This document shows positions 22,729 to 26,371 of a DNA stretch of 45,051 nt, in pieces. The notes under the pieces are model-generated. The model was not told the origin of the DNA. It made no database searches and saw only the letters and a list, made by a program, of their open reading frames with translations. A program made the translations under genes and the position numbers. Source of the stretch: Frateuria sp. Soil773 (lineage in GTDB: Bacteria > Pseudomonadota > Gammaproteobacteria > Xanthomonadales > Rhodanobacteraceae); the NCBI RefSeq assembly GCF_001428405.1, contig NZ_LMSL01000041.1, positions 188,526-233,576 of the forward strand. The letters are read 5' to 3'. Positions within the stretch are counted from its first letter, which is position 1. Each line of letters opens with the position of its first letter.

Positions 22729-25173
22729 TCACCCCGGCCGGCGCCGCCGGCGCAGCACCGCGCCGAGGCCGATCAGCAACAGCAGCGCGCCGGCAACGAG
22801 GTACCAGCGGTAGTGGCCGGCCAGGTGCCGCACGTGCGCGATCCGCTGCTGGCGCAACAGCGTGCGGGCGCGGTCGAAGTCCGGTGCCTCGCAGGAGCGG
22901 CCGAATTGCCCGGCCCAGCTTACGTAGGCGCCCTGCTCCACGTAGCGCCGGTACAGCGCCTCGGCCCGCTGCAGGCGCTCGGGCAAGGCGGTCGGCTTGG
23001 GATCGCCGAAGCCGCCGAACTGGTCGCCGTAGTCCGGCGGCCCCTGCAGCATCCATCCGGTGGCCTTGCACAGCACCGCGGCGAATGCCTGCGAGCGCGG
23101 CGGCAGCAGGTCGGCCGCGCGGCTGGCCTCGTCGGCCGCCAGGTAGCGGTAATGGAAGCGACGCGGCGGCTTCGCGGCGCTCGCGACGAAGCGGTCGTGC
23201 TCGCCCTGGGTCAGGTACGCGCCCACCTTGGCCGTGTCCTGGCCGAGCCCGCCCTGGTACATGCCGTCCAGCGCGTAGTAGTCCGGATCGGCCTCGTAGC
23301 CGAGGATCTCCATGCCGTGCTCGCGCGCGATCGTGGCGGCCCGGAACAGCGCCTCGGCCTTGCCGATGCCGGTCCAGGCCGACTCGCTGCGTTGCAGCGC
23401 ATCGGCATACTGTTGCGCCCATACGCGATGGCGCTGCGGCGGCGGCGTTTCGCCGTCGTCCGCGCTTGTCGGCGCGGTCGGCGCGGCGCCTTCGGCGGCC
23501 GGTTCGCGGAAATAGCCGAACGCGTCCCGGTAGCGCCCCGCACGCATCAACCGGCGCGCCAGCAGCTCGCGCAGCGCGGTGCCGCGGCCGACCTGGCCGT
23601 CGGTATAGGCATAGCTGGCCTCTCCTTCGGGCGCCTGCATCATCGCCGTGCTGGCCGGTACGCGGGTGTCCACGAAGTGCTTGAGCTCGTCCACGGTGAG
23701 CACGCGCTCGGCCAGGTAGGCCACGTCGCCCCACCAGACGTCGGCGCGGTTCCACAACTGCTCCAGCGCCTGCACGTACTCGCCGCGCGCCAGGCTCAGC
23801 GCGCCCTGCTCGCCGTGCAGCCGGTCGACGCCGTCGGGTTCGATCCCCGGCACTTCGCCGGTCGCGGGGAAGGCGCGGATCGCCTGCGCGTACGCCGTGC
23901 TGGCGGCCGCCATGTCGCCCTTGCGCAGGGCCAGCTTGGCCTGCACCCAACTGGACAACGGGCCGGATTGCCGGCCGCTCAGGGTGGCGGCCAGCTCGTA
24001 GCGGCCGCTGCGGTAGGCCAGCGCGGCCAGCCGGTCCGCGCCTTCGACGCGGGACAGCCCGCGCTGCTCGATCGCCGCCACCAGCGCGGCCAGCCGGTCG
24101 CGGCCGAGGGCCGTATCGTCGGACGCGGCATCCTCCGCGCCGCGGTCGGCGGAATACGCCAGCGCATAGGCGACCAGCGCGCGCTGCGCCAGCGAATCGT
24201 CGAGCAGGCCGGCCAGCAGGTCCGGATGGCCGAATGCATAGCCGGACAAATGCCGCAGCGATTCCACGCCGCTCTGCGAGTCGCGCGCCGCCTGCTCCGC
24301 GTACAGCCCCATCGCGCGGGCATAGTTGCCCGGCGCGATGGTGGCCGGGCACGCGCCGCCGGCGACGAAACCCTGCCAGCGGCAGAACGGGCCATCGGCA
24401 CTGCCGTCGTTCACCGGGCCGCCGGCGCGCAGGTACAGGCGCGCCTCCTCTCCATAGCTGGCCACCGCCAGGCCCTGCGGATCGGGCGCACCCTGCAGGG
24501 CCAGCACGCGCGCCTGCGCGAAGTGGCCGCGGATCGTCGCCATGCGGTCGTCCGGCTTGCAGTTGCCGCAGTCGGCGAACTGCCTGAGGCCGATCTCGCC
24601 CAGCATGTAGGCCGCCGCCACCGCGCGCTGCCGCGCCTGCGCCGGCGGCAGCGCGAGCAGGTCGTAGAGGCGCCGCTCAGCGCGGCCGAGCCGCTGCGGG
24701 TCGACCTGGGCGGCGCAGGTGTGCGCCTGGACCTCGGTCGCCGGCTCGTCTCCCGCGTCGTCCGCCGCATGCGCGCAGCCGAAGCCGGCCTGGTGGAGCT
24801 CGATCGCCGCCGCGGCGTACAGCCGGATCGCCTCGGGCAGGCCCGCGCCGGCGGCATAGGCCTCGTCGCCGGTGGCGGCCGGCGCCATCTTGCCGAGCAG
24901 CGCCAGTTGTTCCGCCGGCAGGCCGGCGTCGAGCGGGGAGACGGGGGCCTGCTCCCGCGTCTCCCCGGCAGGCGCTTCGTGCGCCTTCAGCTCGTCGGAC
25001 GCCGTGCGCAGGTGCATCGCCTCGTAGGCGAACGTGTTCACCGGCGTGGCCGCGAAGGTCGCGGCGCGATCGGACAGCAACTGGCTCGGGAAATCCGGGC
25101 CGCAGGCCCATACCGCGCCGGCCAGCGCGCCTGCCGCCGCCACGCCGAGCAGCCATCGTTCACGGTTCCACAT
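22729..25173 (-). CDS. Large (814 aa) Ala-rich hypothetical protein with an N-terminal signal peptide and a C-terminal TM anchor
   Basis: Start is Met 87 of ORF 22729..25431 ([23 protein letters not shown], signal-like). The C-terminus [25 protein letters not shown] is a single TM helix with a basic tail. Several Cys pairs. I recognise no catalytic motif. The gene overlaps the upstream lipoprotein gene by 14 nt. Confidence 0.55.
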
Positions 25174-26371
25174 GCCATGCTCCCTCGTCGGCGGCGCCGC
25201 AGCGCGCCCAGCCGATCGTCCGTCGGTGCCCTGCCCGCAGCAGCCCCGGCTGCGCGCGCTCCAAGGCGGGCGTTCGCCCATCCATGCGCAGACGATAACC
25301 GTTGACGCCGTCGGCGAGCGAGCATCCGGCCGGCAGGCCGACCCGCGCGGGCAAGGCCGCATCGACGCGGCCTGCGTTGTAGAGCTGCACGTCGTAGCCG
25401 CCCGCCGCGTCGCCGCGCCGCAGGCTTGCATCCACCTGCGCCCGCAACGGCTCGCCGCGGATCACCGCCAGCCAGGTCGGCAGGCTCCACGCGCGCAGGT
25501 CCTGCGCGGTGGGCAGGCGGAACCAGGCGATGCCTTGCAGGTGGGGCGGCGGGTCGGCCTGCAGCGCGCGCAGGAAAGCCGCCAGCTGGCGCGGCTGCGC
25601 CAGCAGTTCGCGCGCGTCCTCGCGCGCATCCAGCACGGCCGCCTCGCTCGCCACCGAAGCGAGCCTGCCTTCGGCGTCCCAGCTCACCCGCGAGCCGTAG
25701 TTGGGCAGCGCCAGCAGGAACGGCTTGTCGCTGCGCATCGCATAGTCGGCCGCCCACTGCCGGGCCAGCGCCGGATCGAACAGGCCGGCGCGCGGATCGC
25801 GCACCGCATGCACCTGCAGCACCGACGCATCGACCGCGGCCAGCACCCGGCCCAGCACCGGTGAGCGCAGCCAGGCCGGCAGCGCGGTGATCGACAGGCG
25901 CGCCTGCGCCGGCAACGCCGCACGCAACCGCGCGAGAAAGTCCGCATAGGCCGGCAGCCGCGCCGTGCCGCAATCGTGGTCGATCTCCAGCCCGGCCAGC
26001 GGCACGCCGCCATCCTGCCAGTCGCGCCACAGCGCCAGCGTGTCGGCCAGCAGCGCCTGTTCGTCCCATGCCTGCAACTGGCCGTCGATGCGCACCACCA
26101 GCACCACCGGCTTGCCGCTGGCGGCGAGCGCGGCGCGGTCCGGCGCGAAACGCCGGAGCCGGCCAGCCGCGTCGGTCTGCGCCGCAAGCACGCGCCAGGC
26201 ATGGATCGCCCCGCCGCTTTCGCGCAGCGCATCGGTCACCGCGGGCGTCCATGCGCGCTGCCAGACGTAGGCATCGTGCGGCAATGGCACTGGCGCGGCG
26301 CGATGGCAACCCATCAGCACCAGGCAAAGCAGGACCGCGACCGGCCAACTGAAGATCATCCGATACCGCAT
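25160..26371 (-). CDS. Lipoprotein, hypothetical (possibly a DUF3142-like TIM-barrel-type fold)
   Basis: Met 91 of ORF 25160..26641 gives a lipobox signal, MRYRMIFSWPVAVLLCLVLMGC. Translationally coupled to the 814-aa protein. Confidence 0.55.
   Translation of the reverse strand: MRYRMIFSWPVAVLLCLVLMGCHRAAPVPLPHDAYVWQRAWTPAVTDALRESGGAIHAWRVLAAQTDAAGRLRRFAPDRAALAASGKPVVLVVRIDGQLQAWDEQALLADTLALWRDWQDGGVPLAGLEIDHDCGTARLPAYADFLARLRAALPAQARLSITALPAWLRSPVLGRVLAAVDASVLQVHAVRDPRAGLFDPALARQWAADYAMRSDKPFLLALPNYGSRVSWDAEGRLASVASEAAVLDAREDARELLAQPRQLAAFLRALQADPPPHLQGIAWFRLPTAQDLRAWSLPTWLAVIRGEPLRAQVDASLRRGDAAGGYDVQLYNAGRVDAALPARVGLPAGCSLADGVNGYRLRMDGRTPALERAQPGLLRAGHRRTIGWARCGAADEGAWHVEP

Follow-up and report, generated by a model that had tools for sequence, protein, structure and literature searches.

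A near-obligate gene pair encoding a DUF3142 lipoprotein and a predicted exported TPR-like solenoid protein in Frateuria sp. Soil773

Two overlapping minus-strand genes, here called A and B, were analyzed in a 45,051-nucleotide (nt) stretch of contig NZ_LMSL01000041.1 from Frateuria sp. Soil773 (positions 188,526 to 233,576; hereafter, the window). A encodes a lipoprotein of the DUF3142 family, and B encodes a large protein predicted to be exported and anchored by its C-terminus. Based on loci from genome and metagenome collections, the pairing of A and B is near-obligate. Moreover, sequence and predicted fold indicate that A is homologous to the chitinase TfeC, and within the DUF3142/TfeC branch, A is a new member with a distinct architecture. 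To our knowledge, no function had been assigned to DUF3142 before the characterization of TfeC in 2026. As a genetic entity, the A-B pair is well defined and widespread but in itself unsurprising. Its function can be proposed only tentatively: A may be a hydrolase of a glycan that contains N-acetylglucosamine (GlcNAc), and B may be the non-catalytic partner that holds or gates it.

The gene pair and its conservation

The two genes and their junction are located as follows.

25160 to 26371, minus strand: gene A, a DUF3142 lipoprotein of 403 amino acids (aa) plus stop codon, defined by its open reading frame (ORF), Pfam, an NCBI match and the GC content at third codon positions (GC3)
22729 to 25173, minus strand: gene B, an ORF of 814 aa plus stop codon, predicted to encode an exported, C-terminally anchored solenoid protein resembling tetratricopeptide repeat (TPR) proteins
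25160 to 25173, minus strand: 14-nt overlap of the A stop and the B start, the likely site of translational coupling, from the sequence
25180 to 25186, minus strand: Shine-Dalgarno-like GAGGGAG within the 3' end of A, 6 nt before the B ATG, from the sequence

These positions and sizes agree with an earlier note made from the letters of this DNA, which gave about 400 aa for A and 814 aa for B. A is a 100% match to the DUF3142 domain-containing protein of Frateuria sp. Soil773 at NCBI, and B is 100% identical to WP_056007890.1, a hypothetical protein of the same strain. The NCBI entry for A starts at Met5 and comprises 399 aa, compared with 403 aa from Met1. Both in-frame ATGs lie within 26359-26371 (minus strand), with GGAGG located 2 nt before Met1 and 14 nt before Met5; the Met1 start places two extra Arg residues in the n-region of the signal peptide. 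The GC3 values of A and B (0.87 and 0.92) are close to those of the nearby genes queA (0.94) and tgt (0.96), whereas a different pattern is found in an antisense ORF (22363-25305, plus strand) and in an alternative-frame ORF (22700-24352, minus strand). Because their codon-position GC is like that of queA and tgt and unlike that of the antisense and alternative-frame ORFs, A and B are both the native coding frames. Since GC3 resembles that of the neighboring genes, the module also bears no sign of recent transfer. Overall, the GC content of the module (22729-26371) is 0.742, above the window mean of 0.698, and goes with proteins rich in Ala, Arg and Gly.

The junction reads ...GCATGGC-ATG-TGG-AAC-CG-TGA, with the B ATG 14 nt ahead of the last base of the A stop codon. 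This overlap, already pointed out in the earlier note, is real and recurs in other genomes: among 71 other loci, the same 14-nt overlap is present in 30, a 4-nt overlap in 11 and a 1-nt overlap in 4. The junction consensus ATG-nnn-AAC-CG-TAA/TAG/TGA is maintained across proteobacterial classes, and purine-rich stretches similar to GAGGGAG also precede B in other loci.

A scan of a genome collection with a profile of B returned at least 447 loci, and the best 80 were examined. These belong to Rhodanobacteraceae, Pseudomonas, Paraburkholderia, Herbaspirillum, Achromobacter, Gluconacetobacter, Nitrospirillum, Stellaceae, Rhizomicrobium, 'delta-proteobacterial' bins and Binataceae. An A homologue is located upstream on the same strand in 79 of the 80 loci, and immediately upstream in 78; the sole exception is truncated by the end of its contig. 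In the reverse test, a metagenome scan with the A profile yielded 78 testable loci, all of which carry both genes, with B directly downstream of A in 77. The only rearranged order occurs in locus L117 (JADMIO010996574.1; 2389-4851 and 5926-7164), where the two genes share a strand but B precedes A by approximately 1 kb. In Dyella tabacisoli (L024; 5891-7939 and 7932-10475), the partner gene is duplicated specifically in this lineage, with two B-family copies in tandem after A. The earlier note had staked its proposal of a module on the co-occurrence of the two genes in other genomes, and both genes are indeed found together in 79/80 and 78/78 loci. The idea that A and B are unrelated neighbors whose overlap arose by accident in a GC-rich genome has nothing to draw on beyond the general frequency of short overlaps; it is refuted by this pairing across several proteobacterial classes and Binataceae and by the recurrence of the 14-nt junction, and we assign it a negligible probability.

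Three metagenomic A-B fusion proteins (P0116, P0356 and P0324) were considered and rejected as Rosetta-stone evidence. In P0116 and P0356, the signal peptide of B is retained as an internal segment, and in P0324 the junction is garbled; all three are probably read-through or frameshift gene calls and count as evidence of adjacency only. In addition, a comparative-genomics table for Pontixanthobacter (PMC10040529) lists a DUF3142 cluster and the next-numbered hypothetical cluster with an equal halotolerance co-occurrence score of 0.81, and these clusters may represent the same A-B pair.

Protein A and its relation to TfeC and GH18

The features of A are as follows.

26306 to 26371, minus strand: signal peptide and lipobox, residues 1-22, L-M-G-C22, from sequence, hydropathy and family comparison
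25457 to 26284, minus strand: (β/α)8 barrel like that of glycoside hydrolase family 18 (GH18), residues ~30-305, from the AlphaFold2 model
25970 to 25993, minus strand: putative catalytic β4 motif G127-L-E129-I-D131-H-D133-C134, from conservation and TfeC alignment
25163 to 25435, minus strand: C-terminal β-sandwich, residues 313-403, with invariant C350 and C391, from the AlphaFold2 model (all-β)

The N-terminus of A, MRYRMIFSWPVAVLLCLVLMGC, carries the lipobox L-M-G-C22 (LVLMGC22), and the signal peptide is the only hydrophobic window in the protein. The lipobox had been noticed before and holds as canonical across the family: of 89 homologues, 67 have a Cys ahead of the barrel, most commonly in the form L-[AV]-[AG]-C, and 22 have no such Cys. 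In Escherichia coli, the residue at position +2 decides whether a lipoprotein is sorted to the inner or the outer membrane. As Asp is not found at position +2 of A, the protein is probably routed to the outer membrane, on its inner face; only 1 of the 89 family sequences has Asp at +2.

PF11340 (DUF3142) matches residues 86-288 of A with an E value of 1.9e-74 and 250.6 bits against a cutoff of 30, so that the tentative suggestion of DUF3142 in the earlier note was correct. The AlphaFold2 model, built with 47 homologues, is confident (predicted local distance difference test score, pLDDT, of 91) and consists of a barrel followed by a β-sandwich. The barrel superimposes on GH18 enzymes. Foldseek ranked the cortex peptidoglycan hydrolase SleL first (E 1.6e-10), and SleL and Cwp19, both acting on peptidoglycan, are among the closest folds. 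Most of the top structural matches are chitinases. Lectin-like, non-enzymatic folds (IDGF-2, SPC-40, XIP-I and TCLL) are matched as well. D337, C350, D354, Y359, G387, W388, R390 and C391 are invariant in the β-sandwich, which would serve as a docking or glycan-binding domain.

GH18 enzymes carry the signature D-G-[LIV]-D-[LIV]-D-[WYF]-E (DGxDxDxE) on β4 and M-x-Y on β6. The β4 motif of A aligns residue by residue with this signature and with 'GLQIDFDAG' of TfeC. Both A (D133) and TfeC have Asp in place of the catalytic Glu of GH18; the β6 residues are Q186-V-H188 in A and Q-T-Y ('IQTYQG') in TfeC. E129, D131 and D133 are invariant in 47 A sequences; over 136 paired loci, the motif takes the form ExD[H/Y/F]D[C] with invariant acidic residues, and Cys134 is replaced by Gly or Ala in nine. 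Nine Trp residues are also invariant, as might be expected of a carbohydrate-binding cleft. A role for His132 as a metal ligand was rejected; position 132 is H, Y or F, similar to the aromatic residue of the GH18 DxDWE motif. Collectively, a GH18-type barrel with ExDxD and the homology to TfeC supersede the previous view that A has no recognizable catalytic motif.

At the sequence level, membership of A in GH18 was rejected. No PF00704 (GH18) match was obtained for A at E <= 1, and hhalign of the A profile against E. coli ChiA, which itself matches PF00704, gave nothing in the GH18 region. Furthermore, the DxxDxDxE signature with its catalytic Glu is not present in A, which reads A-G-L-E-I-D-H-D. 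The relationship between A and GH18 rests on the fold and on TfeC. The A-family profile matches the TfeC sequence with an E value of 3.4e-12, and the TfeC structures 8y6t and 9vtv (chain of 262 aa) are among the PDB matches of the A model; by both measures, A is a homologue of this chitinase. In a passage of a review (PMC13577199, citing Zhu et al. 2026), TfeC is described as an antifungal effector of the type VI secretion system T6SS4 of Yersinia pseudotuberculosis and reported to be an active chitinase of a distinct GH18 branch.

The substitutions in the active site raise the question of whether A could be a catalytically dead, lectin-like relative of GH18, with the pair serving as a tether, structural or sensing, whose glycan ligand is bound but not cleaved. 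The loss of the catalytic Glu (Asp133), the change of the β6 Tyr to His and the presence of the chitinase-like lectins IDGF-2, SPC-40, XIP-I and TCLL among the structural matches are compatible with this idea. However, TfeC is reported to be active with the same D-x-D arrangement, and E129, D131 and D133 are invariant over the 136 loci, whereas such acidic residues tend to vanish in dead lectins. We therefore regard a dead lectin as improbable.

Protein B as a predicted anchored solenoid

The features of B are as follows.

25105 to 25173, minus strand: predicted signal peptide, residues 1-23, ending V-W-A, of the signal-peptidase-I type, from the pattern in homologues
25009 to 25104, minus strand: conserved N-terminal segment of the mature protein, C24-G-P-x-F-P-x-Q-L-L..., from the family alignment
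22813 to 24915, minus strand: predicted periplasmic all-α solenoid, residues ~87-787
22732 to 22806, minus strand: C-terminal transmembrane (TM) helix, residues ~790-807, and RRRRR tail, from hydropathy and homologues

B contains 19.6% Ala and has just two hydrophobic windows, one at residues ~7-25 and the other at residues ~788-809, with RRRRR after the latter. The signal peptide, the single C-terminal TM helix and the poly-Arg tail described in the earlier note are present and are kept in the homologues examined; the helix and an Arg-rich tail occur in all 30 B homologues listed. In bacterial membrane proteins, basic residues are preferentially cytoplasmic (the positive-inside rule). Because basic residues precede the first hydrophobic segment and the poly-Arg tail follows the last one, the bulk of B is likely to be periplasmic.

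Across 115 homologues and 71 genomic loci, the residue at -1 relative to Cys24 is always Ala, that at -3 is nearly always Ala or Val, and that at -2 is bulky (W/L/I/M/H/Y). A strict lipobox occurs in only 6 of the 115 homologues and a PROSITE-type pattern in 16. B was therefore rejected as a lipoprotein, given the A/V-x-A pattern with a bulky -2 residue; it is probably cut by signal peptidase I, with a predicted mature start at Cys-Gly-Pro. Around this site, A23, C24, G25, P26, F28, Q31, L33, R36, P44, N46, F48 and L55 are invariant, and residues 17-30 of the monomer model have pLDDT values below 50. A sorting signal of the sortase or exosortase type (LPXTG-like, GlyGly-CTERM or PEP-CTERM) at the C-terminus was rejected as well; the NCBIfam sorting-signal models scored below threshold (at best 13.3 bits vs 32 and 11.1 vs 22), and no motif precedes the helix.

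The predicted structure of B is all-α, comprising a TPR-like solenoid of helical hairpins of approximately 700 residues. In Pfam, B matches no family, and its homologues show mostly sub-threshold matches to TPR and HEAT_Nup120; in the PDB, it has no sequence relative and no enzyme match. The earlier note recognized no catalytic motif in B and would have yielded to homology with a characterized enzyme; the searches matched no enzyme family or fold. Its mention of several Cys pairs holds in part: B has nine Cys residues, but only C24, C702 and C761 are conserved across the family, and the others are largely lineage-specific. Many Arg, Asp, Glu and Tyr residues of B are invariant, which suggests a specific ligand or partner surface. 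The family is large (2372 cluster representatives at 50% identity for E <= 1e-3, including 1357 at 1e-30), and neither a Pfam or NCBIfam model nor literature on it was found.

Proposed function of the pair

We tentatively favor a reading in which A is a glycan hydrolase acting on a GlcNAc-containing polymer, preferably peptidoglycan, and B is a non-catalytic partner that holds or gates A. The proposal starts from what the analysis established, namely the structure of the genes, the topology signals, the folds, the relation to TfeC, the conserved motif and the near-obligate pairing; the catalytic competence of A, the A-B complex, the membrane assignments and the substrate are what we infer. A would be exported, lipidated at Cys22 and located on the outer membrane, at its inner face. 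As a divergent glycoside hydrolase of the GH18 type, belonging to the DUF3142/TfeC branch, the barrel of A would cleave a β-1,4-linked, GlcNAc-containing glycan by the substrate-assisted mechanism of GH18; D133 would take the acid/base role of the GH18 Glu, and D131 and E129 would replace the two preceding GH18 Asp residues. B would be exported by Sec, and cleavage by signal peptidase I would expose its Cys-Gly-Pro N-terminus; the C-terminal helix would tether it to the inner membrane, with the poly-Arg tail in the cytoplasm. The non-catalytic solenoid of B would bind A via the β-sandwich of A and/or the conserved N-terminal segment of B and would in this way place or gate A across the periplasm. 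The gene overlap and translational coupling may keep the two proteins in a fixed proportion. The substrate would be the cell's own peptidoglycan glycan strand, on which A might act as an N-acetylglucosaminidase or a lysozyme-like enzyme.

The assignment of A as a hydrolase is based on the DUF3142 match, the confident barrel, the TfeC homology and the invariance of ExD[HYF]D and the nine Trp residues, and that of B as a non-catalytic partner on its all-α model and the lack of an enzyme match in PDB and Pfam. A functional link between them is indicated by their co-localization, the conserved overlaps and the β-sandwich, an additional domain in all paired A proteins for which the 262-aa TfeC has no room. 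Peptidoglycan is favored because SleL and Cwp19 are among the closest folds of A, because both proteins are confined to the envelope, because no recognizable gene for the uptake or catabolism of chitin or amino sugars is linked to the pair, and because the setting in Rhodanobacteraceae consists of housekeeping genes. Among the neighbors in 10 diverse loci, no such uptake or catabolic gene was recognizable, although transporters with unknown substrates do occur.

The preference for peptidoglycan over chitin is weak, and chitin is a close second. In the chitin-directed alternative, A would be a true chitinase or chitodextrinase acting on periplasmic chito-oligosaccharides or, if surface-exposed, on fungal walls, with B as a tether or chaperone. 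TfeC, the only characterized DUF3142 protein, is an antifungal chitinase; chitinases make up most of the top structural matches of A; and the host taxa and metagenomes are from soil, peat and plant-associated environments where fungi are abundant. In Xanthomonas sacchari, the pair moreover follows a TPR protein and a TonB-dependent receptor. On the other hand, recognizable genes for chitin or GlcNAc uptake, catabolism or regulation are found neither in the 10 diverse loci nor in the window, an absence qualified for uptake by the transporters mentioned above. Furthermore, lipid anchoring of A and inner-membrane anchoring of B would be odd for an insoluble external polymer, and T6SS genes were found in 0 of 6 among the flanking genes examined. 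We consider this alternative possible, if somewhat unlikely.

Several further observations weigh against the peptidoglycan hydrolase proposal. The lack of a PF00704 match (E <= 1) and of a match to E. coli ChiA concerns the enzymatic assignment of A, and the replacement of the catalytic Glu by Asp and of the β6 Tyr by His188 means that activity or substrate could differ. The TPR matches of B are generic and point to no particular partner, and contact between A and B is deduced from genetics only. In addition, a core role in the cell wall is disfavored by the patchy distribution among Proteobacteria of soil and plants; TfeC, the only characterized relative, acts on chitin; and the X. sacchari pair follows a TonB-dependent receptor. 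In the literature, no description of the A-B pairing was found, with no mention of 'PF11340' and one incidental, unrelated mention of 'DUF3142'.

A more specific form of the hydrolase proposal is a so far unrecognized kind of periplasm-spanning, self-gated glycan-cleaving machine, in which the exposed N-terminus of B, highly conserved but of low confidence in the monomer model, would dock in or beside the cleft of A, near the near-invariant Cys134 next to the putative catalytic Asp, and switch the hydrolase on or off only where the solenoid reaches. This elaboration is unlikely. An obligatory disulfide between Cys134 of A and Cys24 of B was weakened as a candidate, with Cys134 being Gly or Ala in 9/136 loci and Cys24 of B retained wherever readable. 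If a regulated peptidoglycan or chitin hydrolase complex is correct, it would provide a new enzyme-regulator pairing for envelope biology and assign a role to two large uncharacterized families; if the self-gated machine is correct, it would define a new class of hydrolase, acting on the cell wall or chitin under spatial control, with B as a new regulator family.

Comparison with known systems

A differs from TfeC in several respects. TfeC consists of a 262-aa barrel only and is delivered by the T6SS against fungi, whereas A comprises 403 aa with a Sec/lipoprotein signal and an extra β-sandwich. The Gln and Tyr of TfeC correspond to E129 and H188 in A, and, unlike TfeC, A has an obligate partner gene. 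A TfeC-type T6SS effector lacks a Sec signal; in contrast, A carries a signal peptide and a lipobox, and its flanks encode rtcB, a Band_7 protein, queA, tgt and secDF. Among soil and plant Proteobacteria, DUF3142 most commonly occurs in genomes as a lipoprotein locked to the B family and not as a T6SS toxin. A also shares its barrel with GH18 chitinases and with peptidoglycan hydrolases such as SleL, but it has no PF00704 match and shows the Glu-to-Asp and Tyr-to-His changes.

Pairs of an envelope hydrolase and a TPR partner include PgaB-PgaA, PelA-PelB, LytH-ActH, NlpI-endopeptidases and LpoA/LpoB with penicillin-binding proteins (PBPs). These systems are closest to A-B in logic but share no sequence homology with it. 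The predicted polarity of A-B is inverted relative to these pairs, in that the lipoprotein of the outer membrane is the enzyme and the TPR protein resides at the inner membrane. Moreover, porin, PBP and polytopic membrane domains are all lacking in B, and no synthase is linked. By analogy with PgaB-PgaA and PelA-PelB, A might trim a secreted polymer of GlcNAc or N-acetylgalactosamine while B holds it at the export route. However, the pair has no conserved neighbor among polysaccharide genes such as those for a synthase or porin, and neither the linked synthase nor the TPR-porin fusion of Pga, Pel, Bcs and Alg systems is found in A-B. B is all-α with a single-helix anchor and lacks a β-barrel porin, and the JGI label probably reflects TPR similarity alone. 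A role in exopolysaccharide processing is accordingly improbable.

Genomic setting and transcription

Pfam identifies QueA, Tgt, SecD and SecF on the downstream flank of the pair, and on its upstream flank RtcB and a Band_7 protein. In Rhodanobacteraceae, queA is located downstream of B in 36/36 loci and is adjacent in most, whereas rtcB lies upstream of the pair in only about eight. Outside this family, the A-B cassette occurs in unrelated contexts; the neighbors in the 10 diverse loci include an RpiR regulator, MFS and EamA transporters, PrkA, a Mur ligase, Fic, RibD and others. No third conserved gene was found by neighbor clustering and Pfam scans of 20 neighbors in these 10 loci. The conservation is that of a self-contained two-gene unit and not of the rtcB-queA block. 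The conserved synteny proposed in the earlier note consequently holds for the queA side in Rhodanobacteraceae but not for rtcB or for other lineages, and its claim that the module is not recent cargo is borne out by queA in all 36 loci.

A defense system or plasmid cargo was rejected as an explanation; the PADLOC models for anti-phage defense gave no match for A or B, and a plasmid collection gave a single match. This match is the 508-kb X. sacchari replicon NZ_CP010410.1, in which A and B are again paired. The X. sacchari pair (L162; 1-6596) is more distant, with proteins of 398 aa and 721 aa and a 34-nt gap instead of an overlap. It is preceded by a separate TPR protein and the TonB-dependent receptor, a setting that hints at a carbohydrate-uptake context in that lineage.

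In the window, a hairpin (GGCGCCG.CCC....GGG.CGGCGCC) followed by UUUUU is located at 26451-26480 (minus strand), approximately 30 nt after the rtcB stop codon, and is probably the rtcB terminator; its minimum free energy is -20.2 kcal/mol, with a z-score of only -1.6. A scan of 22400-26800 for consensus promoters and terminators reported none, and the hairpin was probably overlooked owing to its bulge. The hairpin and U-run after the rtcB stop, together with the 137-nt gap between rtcB and A, suggest that A-B is transcribed separately from rtcB.

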